DNA of 63,411 nucleotides, filler included, from Hausera hauseri (taxonomy: Eukaryota): NCBI GenBank assembly GCA_046269625.1. It is 11 parts of 11 records of this genome, joined end to end, with 100 filler letters (N's around TTAATTAATTAA, not from the genome) between each part and the next. Parts side by side here need not be neighbours in the genome. Positions count along the whole stretch, not along the records: positions 4,316 to 16,932 come from JBJURY010022230.1; 10 more parts are not named here. One strand, given 5' to 3'. Position numbers and translations under genes: made by a program. Positions 4,708 through 31,100 of this stretch are shown one piece after another. The notes beneath the pieces are model-generated. The model was not told where the DNA came from. It searched no databases and saw nothing but the letters and a program-made list of their open reading frames with translations. The first letter of the stretch is position 1, and each line of letters opens with the position of its first letter.

Positions 4708-4748
4708 CCCCGGGGGGGGTGAGCCAGGACCGGCATTTTTCTACTACT
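4708..4748 (+). mobile_element. Polinton/Maverick-like right terminus (ends ...CTACTACT-3'), abutting or inserted into the retroelement 5' LTR
   Basis: CCCCGGGGGGGGTGAGCCAGGACCGGCATTTTTCTACTACT, homologous to 1759-1795; abrupt switch from GC-rich to AT-rich sequence right after it. Confidence 0.65.
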
Positions 4749-5294: not shown

Positions 5295-5312
5295 TGGTGT
5301 CCCTAGTGAGGA
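5295..5312 (+). promoter_or_regulatory. Primer-binding site, elongator tRNA-Met-like
   Basis: TGGTGTCCCTAGTGAGGA directly after the LTR end; resembles the complement of the metazoan elongator tRNA-Met 3' end (TGGTGCCCCGTGTGAGGA, from memory). Confidence 0.7.
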
Positions 5313-5411
5313 GGTACGCTGGCGTCGTATTCTTTACGCAACAAACATAAAGCACACTATAAATAATACATATGAAAATACGGATTTGGCAAGAAGCCCG
5401 CCCGGCTATGA

Positions 5412-6260
5412 ATGAGACTCTCAGGACAACAGAATCTCCAGATGTCCAGCTCAGGACTGTGCCAGCATAGGCAACAATGGCACAATGGTTTTACCATGGA
5501 CAAATTCGAAGACACACCAGATCAGGACTATAGTGAGTTCCTGATGCAGTATCATATGTATTACGAAAGCTTCGCATGGACAGACGAACTTAATATAAAG
5601 ATTATCCCTTTGTATCTCAAACGTATAGCACTTAGCGTTTACACACAAATCACAGATGATGACAAAGCTGATTGGGCTAACCTTAAGAAGTCCCTGGAGG
5701 AAAGGCTCTTAGCAGACCCATCAGGAAAGGGTCGAATTGGAGAATTCAACAGAAGATGTCAAGGAAAAGGCGAAACCGTGCAAGAGTTTGCATGTGCCCT
5801 TCAGAAGTTGGCTCAGAGAGCCTATGTAGATGAAGATACAAGGGAAGATGCTCTCCTGGCTCAATTCTGTTATGGTATTAACAAAGAAATACAGAATTAC
5901 ATTATTGTTGCAGATCCCAGCACATACAAAGAAGCTGTTAGTAAAGCAAGAAAGATTGAAATTAATTATGAAAGATTGGAGAATACGAAAAGGCCGCCCC
6001 GAAACGAAGATAAAAAGATGAAAAGTTTTCAACAAAAGAAAAATTTTCAACCAAGTCAAAATTTTCAGAAATTCCAAAAATTCCCGAATCAATCTGGACA
6101 ACAGAAAAAGGTTACTTGGCAGAATCAATCCCAGAATACTTGGCAAAATCAGCCTCAAAAATCTGCGATGAGAAAACCAATGGTAAACCAAGACGGACAA
6201 CCATTGTGTTTTGCATGTCAAAAATATGGACACATGGCCCGCTCATGTCCTATGCAAGGA
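5412..6260 (+). other. Gag region (retrotransposon capsid-like + CX2CX4HX4C nucleocapsid knuckle at ~6207-6248)
   Basis: RCQGKGETVQEFACALQKLAQRAY...LLAQFCYGINKEIQ is the typical Gypsy gag signature; zinc knuckle CFACQKYGHMARSC. Confidence 0.88.
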
Positions 6261-9200
6261 CAATCAAGCCAGAAAAAGAAGAATATTGATATGATCGGTA
6301 ACATATCGGACACTGATCATGAACATGAAACCACAGACACAGAACCTGAAGAGTCGATAGAAAAATTGCAACAGAAAATTAGAAGTAAATTAAAAGAGTG
6401 CAAAACGAATACAATTGAAGAAGATGAACATAAAATTGCTGAGTTAAAACAGCTGTATCTGGAATTAAAAGAGCAGCAAATTTGCGAAGAGCGACATAAA
6501 AAGACGAACGAAAATTCGATTATCGCTCCAGTAGGCAGACCCAAGAAAGTGCCTGCCTCGGAACCAGATACTGAAAAGAAAAAGGTCAAAAGAAAAGATA
6601 GACCATTGATACAAGAAGAAGATCTAAAAACTCCATCATATTCACCTTCCGGAAGCGAGGAAAGTGAAGGAAGTAAGAGGAGCGAAGGCGAACAGAGTGT
6701 GAAAATAAAAAGAGTAAGAAGAAAGAAAGTGACGGAATCGCCGCAGCAAATAGAAACTCCACCTGTTGATTTGGATCAACATGGCACAGAAATCGTACGA
6801 CAAATGATGAGATATGCCAACCAGGAATTGATAGATGGTGCACAGTTCAGGCAGGATCTCTCTATGTTGTTAACCCCAACGATCAGTCACCAACAATTCG
6901 CTGATTTATTGGATTTATTATTAATACATGCCGCCGATGGAAATCCCCATCGCAATTTCGTACGATACGTAATCTACCGTTACGCAGAGAGAGTGAGACT
7001 TGTCAGAGAAAATCCTGAAGTAAGGATCACGCTGCAACAGTACAATCAAGATTTTAGTGTTCTAAAAATGAAATCGTTGGATAATGTAGCTACATTGAAG
7101 CATAAAATCAATGAGACGATCCAAGGAGAATTAGAATTACGTTTTTATGGACGGACGCTATTGGACTACGAAACCATATACGAGGTAGGTATGTGGGAAA
7201 ACAGGTATAATCCAGTATGCCTGGCGCTAAGACAGAGCGAACAAGAAATAATAGATGAAATACTTGCCGAAGTTGCACAGAAAGATACTCAAGAAGCTGA
7301 ACCACATTATGAAGCTCAACGGACAGAGATTGGAACAAATATTCCTATATCAGAGCAGATTCAGACCGACAAAAGAGGCCGCGGAAGACCAAAAGGAACA
7401 ACGAAATTGTACCAATTGAAAGGCAGAAAAGCGAGAGATGACGAAGTTGTTCGGAGATTATTAACAACTGAAGAGGAGTATGATGCTGCTAATATCTCAT
7501 TAACGATGTTGTTGCAAACTCTTTTAGCTAGAATGAATCCTGCCTTCGTCGAATTTAACACCAATCTACAGATACCAGATTCGCTAATGCGGAATATTCG
7601 GAATGAGATAACAAAAATTAGTGAGCAGTTTGCAGATATCCCCACAGACGAGAGAATAAACGAAATACAAGAAAGAGATATACTCTCAAGAATGATGGGA
7701 ACGGGAATATCTAGAAACAAAATTATGACAGCTATATCCTATCTCTTATACAAAATAATAGTAATGAATGGTGTAAACCCAAACCAAGAAGAGATAGAAA
7801 GAAATATAGAAATAGCTACAAGAGCTTTGAAAGCTAACGTCGAAGGATGGGTTAAATGTCGAGGAGGATGGATCAATAGTCTGATTCAAATACAAGAATC
7901 CACATCTGCTATGTATGAACAAACAGAAAATCATCCACCACGTCTACAAGAAAGACAGCAACACCAACAACCAGATTTTGATTTATCTTGGTTAGTCAAA
8001 ATTATACCTATTCTTCTATTATTTAGTTTTATACCAAAAACGCATACGATTATCGCTTACGATTGCAGCCAAGCCAAAGAGGGACCGATATATTCCTTGT
8101 TGGACTTGGAAAAATGTCCGTATGCTAATCCAGCATCATTGACTACAACAACTGATAGAGAATATTATGTTTATCAAGAGTCAGAATTTGTAAGAACCAA
8201 GGTGAGAGAATGCTTTGTACGAAAGAACCACTTCCATTTTATTTGTGGATATTGGTATAGAAATTCAGCCATAGTAGAACCAACTACTCCGTTCGAACCA
8301 CTCGCGATAAGTAAACGAATGTGTGTTGAGGCCTTCGTAACAAAGCAGATTAACATCGGAAGTGTCCGGTTAAAAGCCCAGAAAGGAAAAATCACCAACA
8401 AAAGAATTTTTGTAGCAGGCACAATTGACAAAACAGGATATTGTAAAGGAGAATCCTACAATATAAATGGTGAAATTCTGGATAACATAGTAGCTATTGA
8501 GGATTATCAGGTTGAATTAAGGGAATATGATGCCTTGTTTGAATTGGAATCGGGAAAAATGATGACGTTTCCTGAATGTGACTATTACAATAAAGAATGT
8601 GATACAGGTGAATCTATCATGTCATATGAAGTGGATAAAGATCAATGCCGATTAGCATTACTAAGAAAAGGAAAATTTAATGAAACAAAAGGCCGAATGT
8701 TCAAAGAAGAAATATCAAAAAGTAGATTAGACCGAGTATCGGATATGGTTGATACTCCAACTATAGCATACTCAGCAGATCCAAGCGAAGGTATGAGATT
8801 TAAAATAGAAAGTGACACGAAAAGATGCGACCAAGTGGTATATCGAACTAACTATAAAGGTATATTTCTATCAACAAGCGAAATAAAAAAGGCACAGAGG
8901 AAAATTGATAAATCTGAAGTAAAGCCGCATCTATATTTCGATAATAAATTAGATTTTATTTATCACTTCCAACAAGAAAACATCTACTCCATGTATCGTG
9001 AAATAATATTGAACGATTGCAAGATGAATCGAGAAATAATCCGAAATAGAATATATCTATCAGCAATAACGGATGGTATAATAAAAGATCCTGCCGAATT
9101 ACCCGACGCAGAAGGAAAATTCGCACGGACAATGGGTGAAACGCTAGTTACATTCGAATGTATAAGAGTAGCTGTTAAATTAAGACCAATTGCAGAATGC

Positions 9201-12200
9201 ACTATGGAACTACCTGTTTGGTACAAAAACCAGTCACGATTTCTACAACCAATTACCCGAATATTACTGGAATCTGCGGAAAAACCATACGTGTATCAAA
9301 ATTGTACGTACACAATGTCGCCGGCATTCCGGCTAAGTGATAACTATTGGGTTAGGATGCCCAAAAAGGAGCAGATTACTCCGCCTCGGAAAATTAGTTT
9401 AATTAATCTAAAGACTGAACAACAGTATAAACCTCTAACAGAATTGGTAAAGATGGGTGTATATTCCGAACAAGATATGGAAAATCATAGAAGAATGATG
9501 ATGTTCCCTCAACAGAGACAAAAAGTTTTAACAGAGATGGCGATGAAAGTACTATCTGACCATGATGGAAAAGCTAATTGGGAAAACCTAATGGGACCCG
9601 ATTATGCCCAACGAATTGCCAAAAATATATTCGCAACCGCATGGGGATGGTACATGTGGTTTGGCCAGTTCAATTCTGGATGGCTAGGATTCTACTACAT
9701 TTTCGCATTTGTAAAAGCTATTCTTACAATGATAACTAAAGGTTACGGCATTAAACAAGCCGCCGGATGTACATGGAAAATCGTCTATGCATTGATTCCA
9801 TCTCTAGCTAGTTGTTTCCTAATAAAACAAGATGCTCAATGGAAACAAAAGAATAAAAATAAAAATGATTCAAACGACGATGAGGATATACCTCCAACAA
9901 AGAAAGTCAAGCCTCGTCCAAATCCACCTTCAAGTACAAGAAAAACATGGAGCTTGATCACAGCCCGAAGTAAGAAACGAAGAACGTTGCTATCAGACAT
10001 TCCACAAATGAAAAGATGGAATGAATATCCGATGGAACAATACCAGTTCATCACCAACGATTACGTAGATGTACATTACCCTAGTGACATGGAAAACTAT
10101 GATCCGAAACACATGAAGTTAACTTTTTACCCATCGGCTCCAAAAGAAGCTTTAATAACCAGTATAGATGGCGGTAAAGTAATACCCAGAACGGTAATTT
10201 GGATTGATGGACATCCCATTACCGCAATAATTGATACCGGAGCATCAGCATCGATGATTTCGCGAAAACAATTACCGGAATCGTTGAAGAAAAAGTTACT
10301 GAAACCAACAGAAGAACTTACGAATGTTGGCGCATTTGGAACAAAAGTGCAAGTTAGAGATCTAGTAAAATGCGAAACAAAAGTTCTTAATCAAAAATTT
10401 GAACAAGAATTTAGAGTAGCAGACGAATTGGTAGCCGAAGCTATACTCGGATGTGACGCATTGGCAAAGCTAAAAGATACGTGCATTCATCTGGAAACTC
10501 AGCAACTCCAACCATATAAAAAGGTGAAAAATGGAAAGAAAGATACAGTATCCGTTAAAGAAGATGTGCTGATACCAGCTAGGACAGAAATCGTACTCAA
10601 AGCCTTGGTACAAGGAAAAGATGAAGGTGACGTTTACATTGAACCAAACATAAACTTTATGAATAAAAACGAATTATGGATAGCTCACTCAATTGATAAT
10701 ATCCGAGAACAACAAGTAATTGTTAGAATAGCCAACGTTTCTAATAAGTCCAAATTGCTCAGAAAAGGAACAATAATTGCTTACGTATATACCATAAAAG
10801 ATATAGGCAGTAATGCGACAGAAGCCATTATATCGACCGTTCAGGAATTATCAGAATTCATGGAAAGACAACGGCAGAAACCACGGACAGAATGTGGACA
10901 GCGATTTGAAAATGAACCTTTAAACAAACTAAAAACTCATCTTAACAAAAACAAGAAAACTATCTTGTTAGTTAAGACTCCTATCAATTGGCCAGATTAT
11001 GACTTATTTGGTAGAGAAAGCGTACTAACAGACGAAGAGAAGGAAGGTATAGTTAAAATATTAGAGCAATATAAAAACGTGTTTGCAATAGACGAATATG
11101 ACATGGGAATAATACCTGTCATTAAGCACGAAATAAAACTGAAAGCAGGAATGGAAACGCCTATCAAAAAGAGACCATATCGACTCAATTACGACAAAAG
11201 AGAGAAGGCTAAGGAAATAATAGCCGAGATGAAACAATATGATATAATTAGACCAAGTAATTCTCCTTGGGCGGCACCAATTGTAATGGTACAGAAGAAG
11301 GATGGATCGATTAGAATGTGCGTAGATTATAGAGCCCTCAATGAAGTAACGATAGATAACACCTATCCGTTACCCAGAATCGATGAGATGTTGGACAAAT
11401 TGAAGGATAAAATGTTGTTTACTACACTAGATCTGCAGAAAGGATTCTGGCAGATAGAAGTTCAAGAAGAAGATAAGCAGAAAACTGCTTTTGTAACATC
11501 AGATGGACACTACGAATTTAACCGAATGGCATTCGGAATGAAAAATGCCCCGGCAACATTCCAAACAGCTATGGATATAATCACTATGGATGCCCCACAC
11601 ATAATGTGTTATGTAGATGACGTTATAATTGCTTCAACTGATTACAAACAGCATAAAGAACATCTGAAAGACATGTTGGAGAGATGCGCACTCCTTGGAA
11701 TAAAAGTGAGTCTCAAGAAATGTTGTTTCGCCAGGACAAAAGTTGACTTTTTGGGTCATACAGTGAGCAGAGAAGGTATCAATCCACAGATCGGCAAGAT
11801 AAACAAAATCCAGGATTTTCCAGTCCCAAAAACGGTCAGAGGAGTTCGAAAATTTCTCGGTTTAACAGGTTACTATCGGAAATTTGTTAAAGATTACCAG
11901 CAGATAGCTTCTCCACTACATTCATTGTTACAAGAAAATTCTAAACTTGTATGGACACAGGAATGCCAAAAAGCGTACCAACAATTAAAAGATAATTTAT
12001 TAGCCCCACCTGTACTGGCCTATCCAAATATGTCAAAACCATATTTCTTGGCTACGGACGCAAGCAAGGTCGGTATAGGAGTCGTTTTATCTCAAAAGGA
12101 TGATCAAGGACAGGAGCATCCAATATCATTTGGAGGAAGAAAGTTAAGAAAACATGAAAGAAACTATTCTACCATTGAACGAGAATTACTCGCGATAGTT

Positions 12201-15200
12201 TATGCATTGGAACAATATGGCCAGTATTTATCCGAAACCAAACCAATTGTCATATATACTGACCATAAGCCATTACAATGGTTGAAGAACCACAAAAACC
12301 CAAATAGTCGCTTAATGAAATGGGCTATGTTACTTCAGCCTTATAATTTAAAGTTTGAATACAAAATGGGTAAGGCCAACGCAAACGCAGATTATTTGTC
12401 AAGAATGCCCGAAGACTCAGGTCAAGAAAAAGATGATTTGGCAGATAAACCAGGCGTTATAGCAGCTATATGGACTATCACGGAACAGGAAAAGTCACTG
12501 TTACAAAAACAACAGAACGACGAACAAATAAAAGAGATTAAAGGATACATGCAAAAGAAAAAGATTCCGAATAATATTAACCTCTATACCCATCTAACAA
12601 AATTCGCTGAAAATTATGAGATAAAAGACGAGATATTATATTACAATCAGAAAGGAAAGCTGGTTGTAGTTGTCCCCCAAGAAGATATCAAATTACTGTT
12701 AACTCAATATCACGACGGTATGATGGGAGGACATCAGTCAGTAAAAAGAACGTTAGGAAGACTGAAAAGAAAATACTTTTGGTATACTATGCCAAATGAT
12801 GTGCAAGAATGGTGCAAAAGTTGCCCCATCTGCGCCACAAGAAAGAATACGGGCTCAAAAATTAAAGTTCCACTTAAACCCTTAGAATGTCCACCAGCCC
12901 CAATGGAATTCTCAGCGATGGACATTCTAGGACCCTTACCAATGACAGTTAACGGAAATAAATACATGTTAGTGTTTGTTGATTTATTTTCCAGGTGGCC
13001 GGTCGTAATACCAATACCAGATCAAAAAGCTCAGACGATTGCCCAAGCCTTCGTGGAAGAAATCGTATTTAATTATGGAGCTCCATCTAAATTGCTAACG
13101 GATCAGGCTCAAAATTTTACGGGAGAAGTAATGGCTGAGATTTCAAAAATATTTCAAATACTGCAACTAAAGACAACCCCTTACCATCCGCAGACGAATG
13201 GTACGGTAGAAAGATTCAATGGAATTTTAACAAACATGCTGGCCACAATGGTCAATGAACGACAAGACGACTGGGACGAATATATCAAGCCGTGTTTGTT
13301 CGCAATAAGGAATACAATTCATCCTGCGACAAAAGAAACTCCATTTTATTTAATGTATCTTAGAGACACGCACATGCCAGTCGACTTAGAACTCAAAACC
13401 CCTGTTTCACATTTAAAGGATATGGAGTATAAGGAATTGTTAGAAGAAAAACTCGGATATGTATGGGATTTAGCTTCGCGACACACAAAGATGTGTCAAA
13501 AGGAATACAAAGCTCGTTATGATGAAAAAGCTAAACCGCATAATTTCAAACCTGGAGATAAAATTATGTTGCACACTCCACTGAGTAAGAAAGGAAAAAC
13601 TCCAAAGTTGAATAGACCATATAAAGGTCCATATACAATTCAAAAAGTAGATGAAACCAACATCTATTTAAATAGGAACAAACGAAATAAGATAGACCCA
13701 ATAAAAGTCCATGTAAATCGATGCAAACAAGCACCGACAGAATCAAAAATAAGAAGTGAAGGTTTAAGTTTACCAGTAATGACACTAATGATGTTATGTC
13801 TAATAACATGTACATCGGCTGAACCATTAGACGTGGAATATAAAGCCGTCCAAGTAGGAAAGTATCCTTGTATAAAAATAATAGCTAATCGAAATCTAAC
13901 CAATGACGATTATATACCCATACACATAACAAAAAAATGGTCAACCAAAGTGGCTACTTCGGAACATTGTAGCCTATATTCCGGACATTCTACGCACGTC
14001 TGTTGCGGACTTTCTTTTGGGATTTCATATAGAATCCAGTATGCAATTTGGAGGAAAACCAATAATAAATGGTATAAATCCTATTTCTCATATCCTGGTT
14101 CTACTCACTATTTTAACGAACCGTATTTTCTCGTTGCATTTTACACAAAAATTATGAAAAATGGACCATGCGTAATGGCAGAACCAGAAGCCCCAATAAC
14201 AAGATATCGGACACTGGAATATCAGATTGAAAACAAAACGAACAAGATGGTTTGCAGACCAGATTACCAAAACCCGTATTTGTGTTGTCCCATAACCTAT
14301 GACAAAGAGTACACGATATATTATTGGACGACAAATGACAAAAAAACATGGTCAAAAACGTCAGATGGACCGGAAATAATGGTGAAATCTCCAAAAATGA
14401 AAACAACGACAATCATCTCAACAAGGATAACCACCTCACCATTCACTCAAAAGACAATGACTAATCCAGTAATAGAAGTAAAGAGAATTATTAAAGATCT
14501 AGATATAATTATCCAGTCAACTACACATTCCCTCATCATCACAGTATCAGATCTAAAAACTACGAATGTAAAATTCGAATGCTTCCTTCACCATAGGTTA
14601 GTTGGTGAAGGAATAATAACACCAGACGAACCTACATCGGCCTGTACATTTTTGAAAGCCGACACAAATTATAAAGTCTTGATTACCGAATTAGATGAGG
14701 ATGGTCAAACTCTACAAGTTGTCAAACGAAAAGAAAAGACGTCGAAAGAATTGCTCATAACTACAAGAAGAGTTATAAAAACAACAACCACTCAAAAACC
14801 AAAAAAGATTGATAAATACTTACTAATAATTATTGCACTAAGTACCTCAATGTTAATAATGATTACACTAGCCCCAATAATTATCTGCTATACTAAAATA
14901 AGACGTAGAACACAAAGAACTAATGACATGATAAATCAATTAAAGTTACTAAGACAAAATTCCTTAGACGAATCAATAAGTGATATAGATGCGCCAAATA
15001 ACAATGAAATCCGCCAGGCTGAAAAGCCAGGCGAACCCCAACGGCGAACTTGCCCGTTAAGAGATACCACAGTATGCCTTTGTACTCAAGTACGAGACGA
15101 GGCCGCTAAGATACTTGCGACCTACATGAAACACAGATATATCACTAAAATACTCGCGATTAATAAAAAACAGCCAAAGTGCAAAAACTTTTTCGTATCA

Positions 15201-16703
15201 AAAATCTGGCCGCTGTTAATATTAATTCTTTTAGTCGGCGAAGGAACCGAACAAGCAGAGCGACCAAACAGTTTCTACCACAATATGGTAGCCAACTTGC
15301 TTGCAGCTAACAAGAATTTCATCTATTACGAAAATGCCGCAATGGTGCCCAACCATCTAAAAGGGCATACAGTGAATCAAAGAAGTGGCCTTATAATCAG
15401 GCAACAATCTTATACGATAAAACTATCCGATCTGGTTGATATTACTAAGAGAACAATAGCTATCTACATTTCAGTGGCCAAAGGCACTATTCAATTGAAA
15501 AGTAAGGCTAACCTAAATGAAATAACCGATACTCTCCTTGTCCCATCACCAACCACAATTAGGTTGGATGAAAAATTCATTAAGAATGTCGAACTAACGA
15601 TAAGGGTAGTAAATGAAGTCTACCCCATAATGTATATTGAAATCATTAGGCAAGAATCACTTCCTTCTGATGAATCAAAGAAATTCAATTATTCCATGCC
15701 AATCCCAGACGACACCCTACTGGAAAAGGGTATGTCATTTGAAAGATTATTGAACATACGCAAAGAAGATATAGTCATATTAGCAACGAACGTGGCATAT
15801 TTAATGGAACCAGTTCGACGATCGGAAGTGGCTCTTATAGAAATTACCATTCTGGACGTGGACGGTAAAACTATCCTGGACAAAATATTATGTCCGCGCG
15901 AAAGAATCGATAACTATAATAGCCATGTAACTGGCTTGAGAGAGTCAAACATAATAGGACAGATGGACCTCGTAATAATGTACCCACAAATTAAAAGCCA
16001 CCTTATGGGAAAAATCGTTGTAGGGATGAATGTATATTATGACCTCAACAATGCTCTCCGATGTAGTCACCACCTTGTGATGGGTATAAGAGATCTACTT
16101 CACCATCAAAAGGCTAACCCAAAACAGGAGTTTAATGCCAAATACATTTTAATGGCATTCAACAATGGTGTCTACCCCAAAAGAACGAAGGAAAGGGCAA
16201 AAGTAATCTTGGATATATACAACACAATCCCCGAATACAGGATTAAAGAATCAACACTTTCCACAACTAGCTTAACCCCAGCAGATAGCCCGCCAAAAAC
16301 CTTGGGTATGATGAAAATTCCCAAAATCAAAAATAAATCTATATCTCCATCCCAAGTTGCTACAAAAATAAATGATCAACCTTCAACATCCTCGCAAAAA
16401 TGCCTACCAAGTGAGAATGACCCACCAAAGGAAGTCTCGGCTTATTCGGCCAAATCTTCGACCGAAGTTAAAGAAATACAATGCGAAATGCCCGGATCAA
16501 CAGAATCAATAGTAATCGACTTAACAAAGAAAAGAAAATCATTTTCCCCCAAAGAGACAGTTACATTCAAACGAAGAATCAGAGAAAAAAACCAGTGGCT
16601 CCAGATTGACTCAGTCTGCTATAAACGACCAGATGGTTCTTATAAGATCTACCCTCTGAAGCCGAGGACGGCTTCATCTAAGGAGGGAGATGTTCAGAAA
16701 TAA
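5412..16703 (+). CDS. Single Gag-Ubl-Bcl2-Env-Pol-FN3/TM-exonuclease polyprotein (3763 aa)
   Basis: Uninterrupted ORF with CFACQKYGHMARSC, AIIDTGAS, YPLPRID, YVDD, LATDAS/ERELLA/YTDHKPL, H-H-C-C zinc motif, DILGP/LLTDQA/VERFN and YKGPY motifs. Confidence 0.95.
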   Translation: MRLSGQQNLQMSSSGLCQHRQQWHNGFTMDKFEDTPDQDYSEFLMQYHMYYESFAWTDELNIKIIPLYLKRIALSVYTQITDDDKADWANLKKSLEERLLADPSGKGRIGEFNRRCQGKGETVQEFACALQKLAQRAYVDEDTREDALLAQFCYGINKEIQNYIIVADPSTYKEAVSKARKIEINYERLENTKRPPRNEDKKMKSFQQKKNFQPSQNFQKFQKFPNQSGQQKKVTWQNQSQNTWQNQPQKSAMRKPMVNQDGQPLCFACQKYGHMARSCPMQGQSSQKKKNIDMIGNISDTDHEHETTDTEPEESIEKLQQKIRSKLKECKTNTIEEDEHKIAELKQLYLELKEQQICEERHKKTNENSIIAPVGRPKKVPASEPDTEKKKVKRKDRPLIQEEDLKTPSYSPSGSEESEGSKRSEGEQSVKIKRVRRKKVTESPQQIETPPVDLDQHGTEIVRQMMRYANQELIDGAQFRQDLSMLLTPTISHQQFADLLDLLLIHAADGNPHRNFVRYVIYRYAERVRLVRENPEVRITLQQYNQDFSVLKMKSLDNVATLKHKINETIQGELELRFYGRTLLDYETIYEVGMWENRYNPVCLALRQSEQEIIDEILAEVAQKDTQEAEPHYEAQRTEIGTNIPISEQIQTDKRGRGRPKGTTKLYQLKGRKARDDEVVRRLLTTEEEYDAANISLTMLLQTLLARMNPAFVEFNTNLQIPDSLMRNIRNEITKISEQFADIPTDERINEIQERDILSRMMGTGISRNKIMTAISYLLYKIIVMNGVNPNQEEIERNIEIATRALKANVEGWVKCRGGWINSLIQIQESTSAMYEQTENHPPRLQERQQHQQPDFDLSWLVKIIPILLLFSFIPKTHTIIAYDCSQAKEGPIYSLLDLEKCPYANPASLTTTTDREYYVYQESEFVRTKVRECFVRKNHFHFICGYWYRNSAIVEPTTPFEPLAISKRMCVEAFVTKQINIGSVRLKAQKGKITNKRIFVAGTIDKTGYCKGESYNINGEILDNIVAIEDYQVELREYDALFELESGKMMTFPECDYYNKECDTGESIMSYEVDKDQCRLALLRKGKFNETKGRMFKEEISKSRLDRVSDMVDTPTIAYSADPSEGMRFKIESDTKRCDQVVYRTNYKGIFLSTSEIKKAQRKIDKSEVKPHLYFDNKLDFIYHFQQENIYSMYREIILNDCKMNREIIRNRIYLSAITDGIIKDPAELPDAEGKFARTMGETLVTFECIRVAVKLRPIAECTMELPVWYKNQSRFLQPITRILLESAEKPYVYQNCTYTMSPAFRLSDNYWVRMPKKEQITPPRKISLINLKTEQQYKPLTELVKMGVYSEQDMENHRRMMMFPQQRQKVLTEMAMKVLSDHDGKANWENLMGPDYAQRIAKNIFATAWGWYMWFGQFNSGWLGFYYIFAFVKAILTMITKGYGIKQAAGCTWKIVYALIPSLASCFLIKQDAQWKQKNKNKNDSNDDEDIPPTKKVKPRPNPPSSTRKTWSLITARSKKRRTLLSDIPQMKRWNEYPMEQYQFITNDYVDVHYPSDMENYDPKHMKLTFYPSAPKEALITSIDGGKVIPRTVIWIDGHPITAIIDTGASASMISRKQLPESLKKKLLKPTEELTNVGAFGTKVQVRDLVKCETKVLNQKFEQEFRVADELVAEAILGCDALAKLKDTCIHLETQQLQPYKKVKNGKKDTVSVKEDVLIPARTEIVLKALVQGKDEGDVYIEPNINFMNKNELWIAHSIDNIREQQVIVRIANVSNKSKLLRKGTIIAYVYTIKDIGSNATEAIISTVQELSEFMERQRQKPRTECGQRFENEPLNKLKTHLNKNKKTILLVKTPINWPDYDLFGRESVLTDEEKEGIVKILEQYKNVFAIDEYDMGIIPVIKHEIKLKAGMETPIKKRPYRLNYDKREKAKEIIAEMKQYDIIRPSNSPWAAPIVMVQKKDGSIRMCVDYRALNEVTIDNTYPLPRIDEMLDKLKDKMLFTTLDLQKGFWQIEVQEEDKQKTAFVTSDGHYEFNRMAFGMKNAPATFQTAMDIITMDAPHIMCYVDDVIIASTDYKQHKEHLKDMLERCALLGIKVSLKKCCFARTKVDFLGHTVSREGINPQIGKINKIQDFPVPKTVRGVRKFLGLTGYYRKFVKDYQQIASPLHSLLQENSKLVWTQECQKAYQQLKDNLLAPPVLAYPNMSKPYFLATDASKVGIGVVLSQKDDQGQEHPISFGGRKLRKHERNYSTIERELLAIVYALEQYGQYLSETKPIVIYTDHKPLQWLKNHKNPNSRLMKWAMLLQPYNLKFEYKMGKANANADYLSRMPEDSGQEKDDLADKPGVIAAIWTITEQEKSLLQKQQNDEQIKEIKGYMQKKKIPNNINLYTHLTKFAENYEIKDEILYYNQKGKLVVVVPQEDIKLLLTQYHDGMMGGHQSVKRTLGRLKRKYFWYTMPNDVQEWCKSCPICATRKNTGSKIKVPLKPLECPPAPMEFSAMDILGPLPMTVNGNKYMLVFVDLFSRWPVVIPIPDQKAQTIAQAFVEEIVFNYGAPSKLLTDQAQNFTGEVMAEISKIFQILQLKTTPYHPQTNGTVERFNGILTNMLATMVNERQDDWDEYIKPCLFAIRNTIHPATKETPFYLMYLRDTHMPVDLELKTPVSHLKDMEYKELLEEKLGYVWDLASRHTKMCQKEYKARYDEKAKPHNFKPGDKIMLHTPLSKKGKTPKLNRPYKGPYTIQKVDETNIYLNRNKRNKIDPIKVHVNRCKQAPTESKIRSEGLSLPVMTLMMLCLITCTSAEPLDVEYKAVQVGKYPCIKIIANRNLTNDDYIPIHITKKWSTKVATSEHCSLYSGHSTHVCCGLSFGISYRIQYAIWRKTNNKWYKSYFSYPGSTHYFNEPYFLVAFYTKIMKNGPCVMAEPEAPITRYRTLEYQIENKTNKMVCRPDYQNPYLCCPITYDKEYTIYYWTTNDKKTWSKTSDGPEIMVKSPKMKTTTIISTRITTSPFTQKTMTNPVIEVKRIIKDLDIIIQSTTHSLIITVSDLKTTNVKFECFLHHRLVGEGIITPDEPTSACTFLKADTNYKVLITELDEDGQTLQVVKRKEKTSKELLITTRRVIKTTTTQKPKKIDKYLLIIIALSTSMLIMITLAPIIICYTKIRRRTQRTNDMINQLKLLRQNSLDESISDIDAPNNNEIRQAEKPGEPQRRTCPLRDTTVCLCTQVRDEAAKILATYMKHRYITKILAINKKQPKCKNFFVSKIWPLLILILLVGEGTEQAERPNSFYHNMVANLLAANKNFIYYENAAMVPNHLKGHTVNQRSGLIIRQQSYTIKLSDLVDITKRTIAIYISVAKGTIQLKSKANLNEITDTLLVPSPTTIRLDEKFIKNVELTIRVVNEVYPIMYIEIIRQESLPSDESKKFNYSMPIPDDTLLEKGMSFERLLNIRKEDIVILATNVAYLMEPVRRSEVALIEITILDVDGKTILDKILCPRERIDNYNSHVTGLRESNIIGQMDLVIMYPQIKSHLMGKIVVGMNVYYDLNNALRCSHHLVMGIRDLLHHQKANPKQEFNAKYILMAFNNGVYPKRTKERAKVILDIYNTIPEYRIKESTLSTTSLTPADSPPKTLGMMKIPKIKNKSISPSQVATKINDQPSTSSQKCLPSENDPPKEVSAYSAKSSTEVKEIQCEMPGSTESIVIDLTKKRKSFSPKETVTFKRRIREKNQWLQIDSVCYKRPDGSYKIYPLKPRTASSKEGDVQK
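7020..7230 (+). other. Ubiquitin-like (beta-grasp) domain within the polyprotein
   Basis: VRITLQ...DNVATLKHKINETIQGELELRFYGRTLLDYETIYEVGM matches the ubiquitin pattern DTIxxVKxKI...RLIFxGKxLxDxxTLxDYxI; the relative at 24055-25095 has YVRDVREWL...RFYFRGRILDELEQLIDVGI. Confidence 0.75.
7500..7885 (+). other. Bcl-2-family-like helical domain within the polyprotein
   Basis: BH3-like LMRNIRNEI, BH1-like GISRNKIMTAISY (consensus GxNWGRIVALFxF) and BH2-like VEGWVKCRGGW (consensus LxxWIxxxGGW), in the correct order with plausible spacing. Confidence 0.65.
7989..9830 (+). other. Envelope glycoprotein, chuvirus-like / herpes-gB-related class III fusogen
   Basis: Signal peptide WLVKIIPILLLFSFIPKTHT, mature start IIAYDC...YSLLDLEKC, Cys-rich ectodomain, GETLVTFECIRVAVKLR...CTMELPVWYKNQSRFLQPITRIL motif typical of chuviral-type glycoproteins, C-terminal TM segments. 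Confidence 0.8.
10180..13740 (+). other. Pol: aspartic protease (DTG ~10233), RT (YVDD ~11610), RNase H (~12040-12400), integrase with HHCC, DDE and GPY (~12690-13740)
   Basis: Canonical Ty3/Gypsy motifs and domain order; catalytic residues appear intact. Confidence 0.95.
13770..14890 (+). other. Second membrane protein: signal peptide, three FN3-like Cys-containing domains with a Thr-rich linker, TM helix
   Basis: SP LPVMTLMMLCLITCTSA; repeats ending CCGLSFGISYRI / CCPITYDKEYTI / CTFLKADTNYKV (FN3 LxPxTxY tyrosine-corner pattern); TM YLLIIIALSTSMLIMITLAPIIICY. Confidence 0.65.
15770..16240 (+). other. DEDDh 3'-5' exonuclease-like domain (REX4/ISG20 type), catalytic motif I degenerate
   Basis: IEITILDVDGKTILDKILCPRERIDNYNSHVTGL...IKSHLMGKIVVGMNVYYDL matches the REX4/ISG20 pattern; the expected DxE is replaced by LATNVA. 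Confidence 0.72.
16680..16690 (+). promoter_or_regulatory. Polypurine tract
   Basis: AAGGAGGGAGA immediately before TGTT; the relative on the minus strand has AAGGAGAGGGGAA|TGTT. Confidence 0.8.
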
Positions 16704-16932
16704 CATTTCGATTTACGGTTTAATTAACCGAATTTGTGAATTAATTAACATTTTGTTTTCAAAAACAATTTTAATTGATTTTAGACTATGGTTTATTTTG
16801 TTTTCGTGATCTGGTGTTATCTTTGTTTTTGTAAAAATTATTTTTATTCGGCTTCATTTTTGTTCTTATCCCTGATAAAGCCAGATGTATTTTTCATGAA
16901 AAATGCCATTTTTGTTGATTTCTAAAGAGGTA
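16691..16932 (+). repeat. 5' part of the 3' LTR (truncated by contig end); contains the ORF stop codon
   Basis: Starts TGTTCAG directly after the PPT; AT-rich and non-coding after the stop codon. Confidence 0.7.
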
Positions 16933-21966: not shown

Positions 21967-24900
21967 TTAACAAATAATTTCTAAATTGAGTAGTAAAATG
22001 CGCCAAAAAAATCGATACTGTTCTTCTATCACCCTGTGATGTTCATCATTTAGGAGTTTTAGCTGATTCTGTCGGAAAAGGTAGCCTCGGATGACCACTT
22101 TAATCATTTGTATTAGGAAATATATTGCTAAAAATCCGGATGCAGCTTGCCCAAAAATTAAAAATCTTCCCAAATTTTCTAGAGTATTTCTGCGGTTACT
22201 CACTGATAATGATTTACGCCAAGTAATGATTCTAATTTTGATTGATATCGAGTATCACGTACTACGGAGGCTATGACTCGATTCAATTCGTGTGTCCATT
22301 GTCGCGGAAAAGCGAGAAATTGTCTAAAAGCTTCAATTTTCTTAGGCCTTTCGATGACGTGTCTTGAAATTTGTCGTCTGTAATTCCTTTTGCGAGATTT
22401 GTTCCTGTTAATTTATGTGGAGTGACAGTAATGCCTCCATTTGGCAAACTAACCCAATCTGTTTCACTACACCTAAACATGGGTTCTCCTAAGCTTGCTT
22501 TACAATCTTTAAGGATTCTTGGTTCAGTTGCGTTGTCTAATAATACTCTGGTGAGCGGCGTGGCTAATCTTGGAGTAATCTGGTAAATAACTAGAAGTTC
22601 CTTCATGCAACGTTTTTCCTCAACGTTGATTGGTACATTTCTTTTCTCACATTCGTAAGTTAATAGAACTTCACTGGTAACTCGATCAAAAATTCCTTCC
22701 CTCATAGGAATTATTGGGGATGCAAATTCGGGATTAGCGTAGATAAGAGCCTGTTTTGTCCTCATGATTTCCATATCCAATGTACAACCATTGGTTATCA
22801 TTTTATGATATAACTCGGTTATTCCAACTTGTCCTTTGTAATAGAAATAATCGTCTCTGTTTTTCAGGTAGTCCTCAATCCAAATATCCTGCGTTTCTAG
22901 CTTGCAAGTCTTCTCATTTATTTTTGTTTCTGGGACGAAGAACGCTTCATAGTTGGTAGCGAACATCAGTACTTCAGAACAAAGGGATCATTTCTTTCTT
23001 AATAAATTTTAGTCCATGCTGGTCGGAGATCAATATATTAGGTGTTGGGTGTTCTGCTACATCCTTGCGTGTCTTTGAGTCTAAATATCGTTTTCCGGTA
23101 GTTTCATTCAATTTTAATTTCTTAATTTTGATGAAATTACAGTTTTTCCAGAGGGAGGTTCCCATATTATGACCGAATTCTAAAAGCACAGATTCCGTCT
23201 TGTAAATGGTATTTTTGATTCTCGGTATATAGTTGATTCTCGACACTATGGAACATTGTTTTCTGTACTCGCATCTCCGATTCATAGAAATCTACGACCA
23301 CTACGTTTGCTTTTAATCCTTTTCCGGTGTCATATTCTGCTCCATTACAATGTCCGTTATGCATGTCTAACCTTCTAACCACTACTTGATATGCTCTAAT
23401 TATCTTTCCTGGTTGCATCTCTAGTTCCATACTATCCCATTTTAATCTCCTGGTTTCCTTGGCCTGCTTACAATGCTGGCGTTCAAAATTCATTGGGATT
23501 GGAGGAGTTGTTGGTTTGTTTATTGAAGAATGTCTATGCATTAATCTACAGTGGAAAATGTTACGAGATCGTTTCAACATACATTCCATTCCGTCCAACG
23601 ATATTAATTCTTTCTGTTGATAAAACAAGTAACTTTTTTCCCTTGTTTCCAGTTTATGTGGTCTGGCATCTTTGCATACTTCTAAATCCATTAGAGAATA
23701 TTTCTGTCCTAGTTTAAACTTATCTCAGTCGTAGACAGTAACAGCACCCATATGCTTTATTAACATCATCGAAGTAAGCAAGCTGATTAAGAAATTGGAT
23801 TTGTTTTTCCCGTTACTATTATCCGTCGTTGTCAAATTACGTAGCATATCTTCGAGTCTATTGCTATTTCCGGACCGTTTGTCTTCTTCCTTATCGAATA
23901 GTCTCGACCAATTTACATCGCATGGTAGCTTTCTCGCCGCTCTTCGCGCTAAGCTCGTAGCTGTATTAATTTCATTCTCTCGATTACGGTTTATTTTGAT
24001 AGCTAAGTACAGTAATACTTTTCTTAATTCTTCAGTGGTGTTTTCCATCATGATTTATTCGATTACTGATTCATCGGTTAAGTTACTTTTCGATAATATA
24101 AAACGTGAACTTCTCATTATCCTAGCTCCATTGAATATCGCCCTCTCTTTATTGTCTAATGTGTCGCCTCGAAGGCTTGAATAATTTACAATACGTACTA
24201 AATTCTTCATTAATTCGTTTAATTCTTCACTGCCCGTGCTGAGGGTAGGAATCGACATCTGTCTAAATTCTCTAATCAATTCGCCATTATAGTCAGCTTC
24301 TTCTCGTGTCTTTTTAGGTCTACCGACTGGGCGCCTCTGTCGTGGAACATTGGTTATCGTTTCACTTAGTGGCATTGAATTCTTGTTGTATTGTTCCTTG
24401 TCCTCATCCGTTTGTAAATACTCAAAATACATTGCAGCGTCTCGGACTACCATAATTTGTCCTACGCATTGCTTTGTCTTGGCATTACGCATGGCTTCTT
24501 CTTTTGTCTGTTTATTAGCTATTATTGCTACTATTCGATTTGTTTCGTCAGGGATAATCCCGACATCTATTAGTTGTTCTAGTTCGTCGAGTATTCTACC
24601 TCTAAAGTAAAATCTATAATTTAACTCGTTTGTTCCACCGTTATTTAATAACCATTCTCTTACATCCCTCACATAGGAATATGTAGTTAATTCACATTTT
24701 TTTTCGTCCATCCACTCGGGCGATATCATTACTTTTATCGTTACCTCAAGTTTAGCCCTCAAGATTTTAGCGTATTTCCTTATCAAAAGTTCCGGCACCA
24801 TGTTATAAATTGTGTTCTCACTAGATAATTTAGTCAATGTCGGAATAAGTTGTCTTAACTTATTTTCAGTGATGTTTACGTTAATTAGTTCGATTAAATC

Positions 24901-26969
24901 CCCTTTAGTTAGCGCTGAATCCAGGAGCATCCCCACATTCAATTTCCTGTTCTGCGGACATGTTTTTATCTCATTTAGTTGTACTGGAGTCACGGGTTTT
25001 TCGGCAATCATTGCGTCTAAGTATGCATCCCATTCTGGTTCGTTTCCAACATCTGGAAGTCTATAGTCCACTAAGGCTGTATTTGTCCTTTGCACATTTT
25101 TCTCAAATTTTTTTCAATCTGGGTTGTATTTCCTTCATCTGCATAGTTCGGAAGCCTATTTCGTTTACACAGGCATTTTGAATCATTTTTAGTAATTCGC
25201 CTAATTCATTAGAATTGACGAGTTCTTTTTGGTTATAATCTGCTAGTTCAATAATTACATCTCTTTGCCATCTTTGTACAAATTCTCGCTTACTTTTGAT
25301 TTTTGATTCTGTAAAGGCATATTTATTCCGCTAGCGTTCGAACTCTTTTGCTAGTTCGTCTAGTCTTGATGCTCTTTGTTTTGTTCTGATGCACGTTTCT
25401 TCTACTTTTTGTAATTTAGGCACCAATTGCCTCATCTTCTCATCATTAATCTCCGCCATTTTTACCAATAAGCAGGCTAACCCATACATTTCGTTTATGA
25501 CTTTTGAGTCGGGATCCATTGCATCCAACAATTTCTTTACGATCTTAGATTCCTAAAACTAAGATGTTGGGCACCTCTTATCTTTGTCAACTTTGTATGG
25601 AAATTCTGCTCTGATGTGGCCATCCATTCTTTTGGTTTCTGCAAAAATTTTATTGAGTCCGTTAAAGCGACTCGATGTTGCGGACAAATGTCTAGGGTTT
25701 CAATGTCTTGGGCAGAGATCTAATCGATAGGTTTATCTGTTAAATGTTGAACTCCTTCTAGCCGGACGTTTCTTAATTTTGAATAGAAATTGCAAGTCAT
25801 ATTTTGCTTTTCTGTAAAATTCGTCTCTTCGACCATTTTATAGATTTCTTTCAGTATTGTTGCTTCTTGTTTCTTCATAAAATTTAGCCGTCATAATGTT
25901 TCAAATTGAATTCAGATATCTATTTCTGCCTTTATCGTGTCTAAATTACGTGTGCTTTCTTCTAATTGTTTCTTGATAGAGGGCTCGCTCTCTGGGAATT
26001 CCTTCTTACGGTTTTCCACTAATTTGCTTAATTGCATTACTAATTCGGACCATTCCGAAAACTGATTGGCGATTTTTGGTTTTGACATTATAGCCTTATT
26101 TAGCATCTTATAAGCATCTTTTAACTCATCATCTGGCCCTTTTACGAAATTCATAATCCGACTGACATAACTAAACTCGTCCTTATATTCGGCCAATTCT
26201 ACGATACAAGCCTTTACTACGTACTAAGTCTCCTCGTGGTTTGGGGACACGATTTGGTTTCTCAAGCTGTAAATCTGCGCTCGCTTTTCATTTGCTATTT
26301 TGATTCAATTTTCTAAAGTCGTATATCGTTAGGGTTCAGCGAAGGCAATTTTATCATTTCCATTAAGGGAGGAATATCTACTGGGTCTACACCCAATATT
26401 TCTAAGTCGGTATTACTTCGATTGCTAACTGGTCTTTCTCTAAGCAGGTTAATTATTGCATAGCGAATTTCATCCATCATACGTTCTAAATTACGGACTA
26501 TTCTCTTAAGTTTTGGGTTTGTCTCTAAGGTAGATAATAACGTCTGAGCCTTAGTGATTTTCACATCATTACTGTCTTCATTTTTGCTCCATCCTTCCGA
26601 AAATTCGACTCCACTTTTAATCCATGATTCTAATTCATGTTTCCATCTTGACAGTGTTTCAGGTAATACCTCTTCGGGTTGTCCTAGGTCGATTGCTTCA
26701 TCGTGTTTTCCTTCAGTGCATAATTTTAGACTTTTATATAACCTCTCAGCATACTGTTGCACTTTTCCGGATATATGTACTTGTTCACTAATCTGCTTAA
26801 GCCTTTCTAAATTTCGCTGTAGTATTTCTGGATCGTGACATCTAATTCTCATTTCCTTTAACTCATCGGCATTTTTCCACGAACGTCGAACTTTCCATTT
26901 TTTGGATCGAAATCATCAATATTTTCCGTTTCTCCCTCACTAATGGGAAGCGGGCAGATCTCGTTAATT
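21967..26969 (-). pseudogene. Decayed relative of the giant element: helical cargo - Ubl - AT-hook-like - Bcl-2-like - signal peptide - class III Env
   Basis: In-frame ORFs 24055-25095, 23725-24051 and 23167-23691 are separated only by point stops (AVTVYD* = IIAYDC; YSLMDLEVC = YSLLDLEKC); 22283-22966 SEVLLTYECEK...CMKELLVIY...ATPLTRVL; TM at 21967-22203. Confidence 0.85.
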
Positions 26970-27250: not shown

Positions 27251-27420
27251 TTTGCCTATTTCTAAATGAATTATTTTATCAAGGATACTATCTTCTAGTT
27301 CGAGTAATAATTCAATAAATTTCTTTTTAAATTTTCGAGTCCAAATTTTGATTCAATGAATGTTCAATAATAAGTTGATAACAGATTCAATAAACACTAA
27401 ACACTCCTCCTGCCTTAATT

Positions 27421-27433: not shown

Positions 27434-27435
27434 AA

Positions 27436-28199: not shown

Positions 28200-31100
28200 T
28201 CAAATAGTAAAAATGTTAATTTCTTCTTCTTTGTCTGTCTTCGATCTTCCTTCTTCCAATTCAGTTTCCGATTTAACAGTTTTATTCGGGTTTTTCTTCC
28301 TCATAAGGTCCAAAATTTCTCCAGTATCGCCAAAATGGAAAATGTATTCATCGTCATTGAATAAATGGTAAATAGAATCGTCTGGTTTGCTGGTAATCAT
28401 GGTTTTTATAGGTATCCATGTAGTCAATCCTTTTCTCACCACTAGTAATCCCGACAGATCATGTGCACTGTTCTTGGGTACAATTTTAGTTATTATCTGC
28501 GAAGGAATAACCAATTGACACTTAATTTCTGTAATGGTAGCGGACCTTTCTGGGTTCATTTCCATTGTAAGATCAAAGATATCCGAATACTTTCTATATG
28601 GAATAAGTATTTTCTTTTCACCCAATATCTTTGTATATTGAGCAGCTATCAATTTATTTCCAGTACTCTCCCATTTCATTATCTGTTTTTGACTGATTCC
28701 ATTCTGAACTGACACATTTTTCTCTTTTAGAATTTCATCCAGAACTATTGGAATAATTAATCCATTCCCAGTAAAAATTAACAATATTCCATTGACTCGT
28801 ACTTTGTTTGTTACGTTTTCAGTAAGAGCATACAACAATCTTCTCATTAATTCATTGCTTTTCATCGGCTCTGTCTGTGTTTGCATTTCTCTTGAGTTTA
28901 TCTGGCTCCATTTTTGTTTTCGCGGTTTGATTTCTTCTACTTCATCGAACATGATCTCTAGAATCTCACAATCGATAGTTTCAAATTCCTCTTCCTCCAA
29001 TTTTTCTTGTATTTCTATTTTCTTAGTTTCTTTACCTTTAGTTAAAGTAGCATTAGTACCATACTTCAAATTAAACCCAATTGTATATTGTTTTTCACGA
29101 TTCAAAACATCTTCAAAGTCATTTATATTGTCATTTAAGTCCGGTGGAATCCAATCACATGTTCCAATTAGTTTTTAGTGTGCGGTAATAGTCAACTGTA
29201 ATCTTCCTCTGGTTGTACTAGGAAATCGATTCAAACTCAATACATCGATTAATTGTTTAAACGTTTTGACTTTATTGTCCATAGTATTTTCTACATTTTT
29301 AATGGGTCAAAAATTGCACAAGTCTTATTTGTTGAAATACATAGTGCTTTAAAAGTTTTATGGGCTTCCAGAGCCACTATTTTGTAACCCAAAATATACT
29401 TTTCAATTTCTGATTGTGCCAATCTAGAATCCGTACCATTTTCAATTTTGTCCCAGCTTACTCCATGCCTGGAGTTATTCAAGTTGTGTATAGCTCTTCT
29501 GGGAGCTATTATTTGGTCAAATAATATTTCTCCTTTCTTTTCTGCAATCACTATTTCAATTGGGAGCGGGATAGATGTTCCGTCGAATTTGTGTCCATAA
29601 GCAAATGATACTGACAGATATCTTGTGCTCCCTGATTTATTGGTATATAAAATATTTGGTTCCATTGACATCTCTTTTCCATTTATGGTTAACGGCGTTA
29701 TTAATGAAAGTTTTTGTTCACTTCTAATAATTTCAATCATTCCTATGTTGAGGATTTCTTTGACAATGAAGCGAGTTTTTGTCTGATCTATTGAAAAGTT
29801 TACTTCACATAATTCTTGACAAGATATTGTTTCCATAGAATATCTCTGTCCTTTTCTTTTTCTGAAAATGGCCATTATTCGTCCTATTGCTCATGTATTA
29901 TTATACCAAGATTATTATCGGCCCATTGAGGCAACCTAAAAGTGGTACCTGCATTAAATACCTTGAAGGGAAAATTTTCTCGGTTCCTCATCTCGCCATA
30001 TTTAAGGGTGTTAGGTATTTTAGAAACACTAGTTACTCTTTCGGAGTTATTGTCCAAATGTTCTATAATTCTATCATAAAAGGAATATGTCATATTTTTG
30101 TCCGCTGTACTGAATCTTCTTATCTGTTCTTGATCATATTGTCTATTGATTGGAATATTTTCAGGTATCTTGAAAATTTCTTTCCCTCCGATTTTTGGGG
30201 TATCCTGTTTCATTTGACTGGTACTTGGCATATAACTTTGTTTTTCGCTCGATTCCGACATACCAAAAATTTCGTCTTTTCTTGAACGTTTTCTGAATTT
30301 ATATCTCGCCAGGTTTGTTATGATTGGTTGACCAATCAGTTTTCTTTTCCAGCTATAAGTCATAATTAGGTGAAGTACTAAATCCAATCTAAATATCGCA
30401 ATATATGTACTCAAATTCTTTATCACTTCTTTAAAGCAGTACAGAGTTTCAGTATGAATCTGAGTCAAAACTAATATAGGTATAACACCAAATGTAGTGG
30501 TATGGTCTTCAACTTTGTTTTCTTATCACTTATATTCTCGTTTTGAGTTATTATTTCTCCTGTCTTATTACTTCCTTTCTCTTCATTTATTGGTAAGCAA
30601 TGTTGGTTTCCCCCAATTGTGGAATAATATAATTCACAATGTTTTTTCTTGCGACAATGTTGGGTTTTTGGCCAAGCTATAACCATCATAATAATTATGC
30701 CTATACTTATTATCACGAATATCCACCAGTATTTTGTAAAATACGTTTCAATAATTTCCGGTGTAATTGTAGTTAATTTCCATTTTTCGTCATCATTGTT
30801 GTACCTTATGTGACGATACTGATCTATTGCTGGTTGTGTTTTTATTGCTACTATCTTTGAATTATCTGAAGTTTCTATTCTCACCAAGTAATTGGTGTCA
30901 GGCGTTAATTTTTCGCAGAAATTTCTTTTATTTATTTCGTACTTGATAGTAACTTTTTCATGGGAACCTGTACATGTTACTGTGATGTGCCTTTCGTTTA
31001 TTATGTTTTGCAGTATTACTTCAATGCGATCCATATAAGGCGTTAATTTGAATTTGATGGGGAAGTCTTTGATCCATTTTCCATAAAATATATGTTTATG

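Follow-up and report, generated by a model that had tools for sequence, protein, structure and literature searches.

A predicted class III fusogen as the in-frame envelope domain of a Burro-like Ty3/gypsy retroelement in Hausera hauseri

How does a viral-type glycoprotein come to lie between the Gag and the protease of a retroelement, and what would it do there? The question is raised by a 63,411-nucleotide (nt) stretch of DNA from Hausera hauseri (GCA_046269625.1; here, the window), which is made up of 11 contigs with 100-nt spacers between them; the element under study lies in the contig at 4316-16932 (JBJURY010022230.1), and the glycoprotein in question lies at 7989-9830 on the plus strand. 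We conclude that the glycoprotein is quite probably the envelope domain of a Ty3/gypsy retroelement of Burro-like type. It is a predicted class III fusogen, placed in frame between Gag and protease, that was likely passed down within an old Gag-Env-Pol group and would enable fusion of particles with other cells of the host.

The glycoprotein, its predicted fold, and its carrier

The initial annotation of this locus had described an inserted glycoprotein at 7989-9830 (+). The region does translate without a stop; rather than being a separate gene, however, it forms part of a single stop-free open reading frame (ORF) of 3,763 amino acids (aa) at 5412..16703 (+), which encodes, in order, Gag, a ubiquitin-like region (Ubl), a Bcl-2-like region (Bcl2), the envelope (Env), protease (PR), reverse transcriptase (RT), RNase H (RH), integrase (IN), and a long tail. 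The glycoprotein matches the Pfam family PF24664 (Monjiviricetes_fusion) with an E value of 4.2e-83 and 279.9 bits against a cut-off of 27, over profile positions 5 to 602 of 653; at the level of sequence, this match is far beyond chance. The signal peptide, IIAYDC start, conserved cysteines, ELPV and FLQPITRIL motifs, and C-terminal hydrophobic region that had been noted here were all found in place on the plus strand, with signal, cysteine, and anchor calls resting on hydropathy and alignment. Internal signal peptide 1 is predicted from hydropathy at 7980..8048 (+; aa 855-877), and a hydrophobic run stands ahead of xYDC or xFDC in all 17 proteins listed; we infer that the signal is cut right before IIAYDC. 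The predicted class III (glycoprotein B [gB]/chuvirus-like) fusogen ectodomain, delimited by Pfam, hydropathy, and the predicted model, occupies 8049..9611 (+), with IIAYDC, CTMELPVWY, and FLQPITRIL starting at nt 8049, 9198, and 9240, respectively. It contains three NxS/T sites and 14 cysteines, 11 of which are conserved at ≥90% among 138 relatives; no furin motif was found in it. Hydropathy further predicts a membrane anchor region at 9678..9824 (+), composed of two moderately hydrophobic segments (aa 1423-1442 and 1453-1471).

The ectodomain (aa 880-1400) was folded with 138 sequences, and the resulting model had a mean predicted local distance difference test score (pLDDT) of 90.3 and a predicted template modelling score of 0.76. 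The model contains a 48-residue central helix (aa 1172-1219) and an aromatic loop, GYWYRN (aa 946-951), that joins two long domain I strands; placed where a fusion loop is expected, it is a candidate for that role in the model. A structure search of the PDB with the model gave herpesvirus gB in 36 of 36 listed rows (best E 2.4e-12), and VIA-align gave a Z score of 10.6 with 415 residues aligned, 49 of its 50 rows being gB and the remaining one a thogotovirus glycoprotein. Among predicted viral structures, chu-like glycoproteins rank best among the matches (E 1.5e-35, TM-score up to 0.75). Because the model matches both herpesvirus gB and chu-like glycoproteins, a class III, gB/chuvirus-like fold is supported for this predicted structure. 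The earlier proposal of a chuvirus/gB-like class III fusogen thus survives, on the PF24664 match and the model together: both the fold and any similarity to viral glycoproteins were looked at as points on which it might fail, and gB and chu-like matches were found. A sequence-profile search of the PDB reached gB only at E≥0.0086; huntingtin hits in the same search were confined to the first 140 profile positions and were discarded.

The carrier of this glycoprotein is, on the sequence of its enzymes, supported as Ty3/gypsy. Ty3 RT is the best solved relative of the element's RT (E 1.5e-89), and none of 13 Pfam hits belongs to a family specific to BEL/Pao; together, these two results rule out a BEL/Pao carrier. 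The Pfam domain order likewise agrees with the earlier placement of the glycoprotein upstream of the protease of a Gypsy element. Gag (5412..6311, +) consists of a capsid-like region (Ty3_capsid, E 0.0027) and one CCHC zinc knuckle at 6207-6251 (zf-CCHC, E 4.3e-5). Downstream of the glycoprotein, Pfam places an aspartic protease with a DTG motif at 10185..10475 (+; RVP, E 2e-9), a Ty3/gypsy-type RT with a YVDD motif plus RH at 11289..12344 (+), and an IN comprising H2C2, core, and GPY regions at 12672..13736 (+). The catalytic motifs, namely DTG, YVDD, and the acidic residues of RH and IN, are present in the translation. At least two aspartic protease domains occur in the relatives P0002, P0003, P0004, P0008, P0010, P0011, and P0019, and P0003 and P0010 also have one after the integrase.

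Two further domains are predicted between Gag and the glycoprotein, each with a match under the curated Pfam cut-off. The ubiquitin-like domain (6990..7226, +; Pfam ubiquitin, E 0.0013) lacks a C-terminal GG, and the region gives weak matches also in P0002, P0003, and window contig 4. The Bcl-2-like domain (7572..7871, +; Pfam Bcl-2, E 0.0021) covers profile positions 4-100 of 100; the same match recurs in P0009 (E 0.00096), and the region is conserved in P0007, P0008, and P0009. The ORF ends in EGDVQK and has no PDZ-type end; P0003, P0005, and P0012 have hydrophobic residues as their protein ends.

Relatives, inheritance, and integrity of the element

A homologue search over 1.84 billion representatives gave 1,069 hits, the best 150 of which are listed. 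Among the matches listed, the top full-length tier is polyprotein-borne, with 24-37% identity, and the rest are mostly stand-alone proteins of ~650 aa. The glycoprotein lies upstream of the protease in all five long relatives, and further hits, including one cluster of 20 members, have the same order. Twenty relatives were checked for names: one is a chuvirus glycoprotein (P0041), one a cluster of wasp proteins, one a protein in a bacterial metagenome bin, and one is "hypothetical," while 16 are without a name.

An Env tree was built from the window sequence and 128 relatives with at least 450 aligned residues, excluding shorter fragments such as the 86%-identical P0007. A single branch (Shimodaira-Hasegawa-like support 97; FastTree, unrooted) separates 15 polyprotein rows, together with 3 rows whose context is incomplete, from 111 stand-alone rows, and a 34-row subset gives the same split at 99/99 (IQ-TREE, unrooted); "stand-alone" is here a label assigned by length and by the absence of further domains, P0042 among these rows is joined to an RNase H piece, and no row is labeled as a BEL/Pao (Anakin) envelope. 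The window glycoprotein groups with 14 other polyproteins that bear it upstream of Pol or downstream of Gag. Since the polyprotein-borne rows split from the stand-alone rows in one branch, the glycoprotein was likely inherited within an old Gag-Env-Pol group, as judged from these alignments. Across nine elements, RT and Env identities correlate with a Spearman coefficient of 0.61 over 36 pairs that are not independent of each other.

The earlier inference that this gypsy lineage had independently captured a chuvirus glycoprotein does not hold for the window lineage and applies at most to the old clade. A recent capture would fit the rank of chu-like glycoproteins as the best predicted viral structures and the presence of the named chuvirus glycoprotein P0041 among the sequence hits. 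It is, however, very unlikely: the window row is nested among 14 other polyprotein-borne rows, so that the trees largely refute it; stand-alone full-length glycoproteins are 20-27% identical to the window glycoprotein, compared with 24-37% for polyprotein-borne ones; and the glycoprotein part differs little from the remaining ORF in GC content at third codon positions and in A content.

We also considered whether the join of glycoprotein and gypsy element could be an assembly chimera, as the window is built of short contigs and none of the listed run contigs (four runs compared) spans the whole element. Against this stand the lack of any stop over the 11.3-kb frame, the recurrence of this domain order in distant relatives (in one cluster with 20 members), and junctions bridged by contigs in up to three runs: among the four runs compared, junction-spanning contigs were found for Bcl2-Env in X3 and X4 and, by one count, in X1, for Env-PR in X1 and X4, and for IN-tail in X1. 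A chimera was rejected on these grounds and is barely credible. From 55 to 91% of sampled words of 5400-15300 are present in 10 sequencing runs; no RNA run is among the runs listed as containing element words.

Sites resembling a primer-binding site (PBS) and a polypurine tract (PPT), with TG/CA ends, flank the ORF at a distance of ~11.4 kb from PBS to PPT. The PBS-like sequence (5295..5312, +) begins with TGG right behind ...AACA-T, which resembles the end of a long terminal repeat (LTR); its reading as a PBS is our interpretation. The PPT at 16680-16690 is followed by TG at 16691, where the 3' LTR probably begins; this region (16680..16932, +) stops at the contig end, which truncates the LTR. 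The 5' LTR, for its part, may be truncated or interrupted. The start of the contig (4316-4736) is a separate high-depth repeat in the compared runs, and 4737-5157 is thinly covered in X1, X3, and X4.

Broken relatives of the element lie elsewhere in the window. A homologue of the glycoprotein had been placed at 21967-23790, and this stood insofar as two stop-free pieces of it match PF24664 (E 1.5e-12 and 2.1e-12); it lies, however, in another contig (21565-26969), on the minus strand, and is broken and diverged. The first minus frame of 21967-23790 has 29 stops and the motifs are distributed over two frames; together with a ubiquitin-like region, this glycoprotein with its stops and frameshifts makes up a broken relative at 21967..25113 (-). 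Because blastn between the two glycoprotein contigs gave no match and the 21967-23790 glycoprotein is 23-31% identical to the window element and its relatives by tblastn, it is a diverged relative, and its reading as a second copy of the element was rejected. The contig at 27070-33432 holds, at 29291..33432 (-), the 3' half of a broken relative with integrase, signal-like segment, repeats, transmembrane (TM) segment, and ISG20-like domain, and this half and the broken piece with Ubl and Env in 21565-26969 may go together. The repeats in 27070-33432 (-) are three in number, and a 324-codon frame without a Pfam hit lies beyond the ISG20-like domain.

Metagenome contigs were scanned as well: a glycoprotein scan gave 35 pattern matches, none of them confirmed, and an integrase scan gave nine loci (27-49% identity), in which tblastn found no glycoprotein, tail, or Ubl-Bcl2 region. 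One full Env-Pol polyprotein of the group, P0012, is filed as a hypothetical protein from a metagenome bin of Flavobacteriaceae; this bin sequence is probably eukaryotic DNA. In P0042, a chuvirus-type glycoprotein of the stand-alone branch continues in frame into its RNase H piece, and this may be another env-pol junction or a rearranged copy.

The artificial spacers of the window (N runs around TTAATTAATTAA, 100 nt each) stand at 4216, 16933, 21465, 26970, 33433, 37558, 42660, 46791, 51544, and 58588; repeat finders flag them as repeats, and adjoining contigs are not necessarily neighbors in the genome. An inverted repeat family with 79-84% identity is common to two contigs (56419-57908 and 60288-61564). 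A piece of a piggyBac-type transposase (PF13843, E 1e-13) lies at 59184-60161, a Kelch/attractin-like frame at 39762-40247 (+), a TC-rich simple repeat of 4 kb at 46891-51000, and a 15-nt tandem repeat at 54536-54685. Rfam gave no match.

The tail after the integrase and a proposed route through the membrane

Beyond the integrase, the polyprotein continues for 991 residues, and this tail is predicted to begin with a second type I membrane protein (13755..14894, +), made of a signal-like segment, an ectodomain of ~330 aa, and a TM segment. A signal-like and a second hydrophobic segment follow the integrase in seven of seven full polyproteins and in window contig 5; the same segments are found in none of three gypsy loci without this glycoprotein, which is a small control. 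The ectodomain has Thr-rich stalks and a set of three repeats rich in beta structure. When a profile built on six repeats, taken from two elements, was run against the PDB, it gave fibronectin in four of four rows (best E 0.0046, over 22 residues); Pfam fn3 had no hit in the second membrane protein, the tails of relatives scored no higher than shuffled tails with the same profile, and the predicted model of repeat 3 was unusable (pLDDT 41.6). The sequence thus hints weakly at a fibronectin-III-like protein. No homologue of it was found at E≤1 among 1,696 candidates of 689-2,000 aa and 1,043 of 216-688 aa, a result that counts as weak evidence. The pattern C-x2-L-x2-[DNG]-T-x-Y, defined post hoc from the tails, occurs in four of seven tails and in at most two of 2,000 shuffles.

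Hydropathy indicates a third hydrophobic, signal-like segment at 15180..15248 (+). Within 15180-15728 (+), this segment is followed by ~160 residues without a Pfam hit that abut an ISG20-like domain; if the segment is a true signal, this domain would be luminal or secreted. The domain, an ISG20/REXO-like exonuclease predicted to be inactive (15729..16226, +), matches ISG20 with an E value of 2.9e-5 and ISG20L2 with 3e-4, and it recurs in window contig 5. Its expected motif I strand, IVILATNVAY, is without D or E. One aspartate is retained, aligned to the "HDF" of ISG20. By eye, exonuclease-like domains without a Pfam hit also appear upstream of the glycoprotein in P0020 (aa about 110-290) and P0014, and the one in P0020 seems to retain its acidic catalytic residues.

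One speculative reading of this tail, which we consider doubtful, is that these are retrovirus-like agents with two glycoproteins: a gB-like fusogen and a fast-evolving fibronectin-III-repeat partner that would bind the receptor and trigger fusion, as gD and gH-gL do for herpesvirus gB; in the window element, the catalytically dead domain of ISG20 type would serve in addition to divert the RNA defense of the host. Should the second membrane protein be the attachment partner of the fusogen, this would be a retroelement whose entry functions are divided between two proteins, as in herpesviruses, and it would offer a compact system in which to test what triggers chuvirus-type fusogens.

A polyprotein of this kind might be processed as follows. 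It would be threaded through the membrane of the endoplasmic reticulum during translation, and a signal peptidase cut before IIAYDC would free the luminal end of the glycoprotein. Gag-Ubl-Bcl2 would stay tethered by the signal remnant, like tail-anchored Bcl-2, and the tethered Bcl-2-like domain may delay the death of the producing cell, a guess from its domain family. By crossing the membrane once at the glycoprotein anchor, the chain would bring PR-RT-RH-IN back to the cytosolic side, and the element's own protease would release the enzymes; the second signal, after the integrase, would be cut by signal peptidase and send out a further membrane protein. Gag, Env, and Pol would be produced in equal amounts (1:1:1) and come together at a single membrane, and the fusion of budded particles with target cells would be the task of trimeric Env. 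Such a chain of Gag, Env, Pol, and membrane protein predicts processing by signal peptidase.

The glycoprotein could instead be inherited and folded as a fusogen but serve cell-to-cell passage, or the mere membrane anchoring of assembly, rather than extracellular particles. Its in-frame fusion to Gag and Pol, where other gypsy elements have env in a separate ORF (PMC6431247), is consistent with such a role, and no particles are shown in the available text of PMC6431247 or PMC13524379. However, relatives that are just 24-37% identical have retained the signal segment, the cysteines, and an ectodomain of full length, and the model has an aromatic loop at the expected place of a fusion loop; we therefore regard a role apart from particles as improbable, though less so than a recent capture.

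Several observations weigh against our preferred reading, that of an inherited class III envelope in a Burro-like element. The superposition on gB has a high root mean square deviation (8.5 Å). The anchor segments are of moderate hydrophobicity (1.59 and 1.61), and the proposed topology requires a single pass at this point, as a second one would place Pol in the lumen. The ubiquitin-like and Bcl-2-like domains remain under the Pfam cut-offs and have no PDB match by sequence. No Pfam or PDB hit to a dUTPase-like domain was obtained, although a region of fitting length lies between PR and RT (PMC6431247, in the part available, used HHpred), and MATH, BIR, and ankyrin domains were not found among the Pfam hits of the ORF, which, at 3,763 aa, is shorter than the 4,873-5,140 aa of Burro (PMC6431247). 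Neither an LTR pair with target-site duplication nor a matching 5' LTR was found within the 12.6-kb contig, and the run richest in element words may be the window's own sample. The element is diverged from the Smed errantiviruses, the likeness to the available rows of PMC13524379 being judged by motifs and by eye. Finally, the comparison of glycoprotein and RT trees that the initial annotation had proposed gave partial agreement over nine elements: P0020, P0006, and P0024 form a strong clade common to both, but P0005 and P0017 are placed differently.

Comparison with known systems

Giant gypsy-like elements of planarians, Burro/GYPSM1, were reportedly described by Grohme (2018) and Jurka (2007), as cited in a review of 2019. 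In section 7 of that review (PMC6431247), planarian Burro elements have env in frame between BCL2 and PR in one polyprotein, and this env is compared with gypsy Env and mononegavirus glycoproteins without a class being named. The position of the glycoprotein, which had been called unusual, is therefore not so: the same layout is published both for Burro (PMC6431247) and for GAG-ENV-POL errantiviruses (PMC13524379), and with flatworm Burro already described in this form, the window element most likely represents an additional member of a known group, not a fresh capture. The shared features with Burro/GYPSM1 are Gag with CCHC, an env related to mononegavirus fusion glycoproteins, and PR-RT-RH-IN, all in one polyprotein (PMC6431247); the ubiquitin/SUMO-like and BCL2-like domains of Burro have candidate counterparts here, in the same order but with Pfam matches under the cut-off. 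The window element differs in having one CCHC rather than two or three and a length of ~11.4 kb from PBS to PPT compared with up to 25 kb; the MATH, BIR, ankyrin, and Smc/AIR1 motifs of Burro are not among its Pfam hits, and the dUTPase-like domain of Burro went undetected (PMC6431247). Because of the 3,763-aa length and these missing motifs, we call it Burro-like and not Burro proper.

The tail may set the element apart as well, as neither a post-integrase membrane protein nor an ISG20-like domain is mentioned for Burro in section 7 of PMC6431247. Neither a second membrane protein after the integrase nor an ISG20-like domain without motif I acids was found in print in the available text; the figure of PMC6431247, Grohme's supplements, Repbase, and Sacco 2022 may describe both. 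The words "fibronectin" and "exonuclease" do not occur in the main text of PMC13524379, and accessory domains are not mentioned there. DEDDy exonucleases are known from ORF3 of bdelloid rotifer gypsy elements (PMC5408684), which likewise carry a DEDD-superfamily exonuclease domain downstream of Pol; the window domain differs from that of the rotifers in being ISG20-like, in frame, behind a membrane protein, and without motif I acids.

Gypsy elements of the GAG-ENV-POL type with gB-type ENV occur in nematodes, bryozoans, and flatworms, and PMC13524379 argues for an ancient origin and finds that these elements are not one clade. Its errantivirus group Platyhelminthes_C1a, with Smed_errantivirus_1-6, shares with the window element a Ty3/gypsy Pol and a gB-type ENV upstream of it (PMC13524379). 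In supplement 2 of that article, all 14 occurrences of the window motifs YQES, TGES, TNYKG, and GMRF fall in Schmidtea errantivirus rows 1-6, and eight of eight domain I-II cysteines agree, by eye, with Schmidtea rows 1 and 3. Going by such likeness, a flatworm is the probable host. The nematode and tardigrade ENV rows compared are unlike the window glycoprotein, and these nematode rows are without its motifs; the non-canonical nematode endogenous retroviruses of Sacco 2022 (via PMC13524379) share the ENV-before-POL order and a gypsy (metavirus) carrier.

Anakin BEL/Pao elements and endogenous viral elements derived from Jingchuvirales have a glycoprotein of the same Pfam family beside a retroelement (PMC10084718, PMC7642597); compared with Anakin, the carrier here is Ty3/gypsy and the glycoprotein lies inside the polyprotein (PMC10084718). 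With herpesvirus gB and chuvirus G, the window glycoprotein has its predicted fold and domain order in common, at identities of 10-14% to gB and 15-20% to the best chu-like structures; unlike them, this predicted fusogen has no furin motif, and its production would depend on an internal signal within the polyprotein of a retroelement. The window thus adds one uninterrupted, diverged member to the published Gag-Env-Pol group, and structure prediction here assigns its in-frame envelope to class III.

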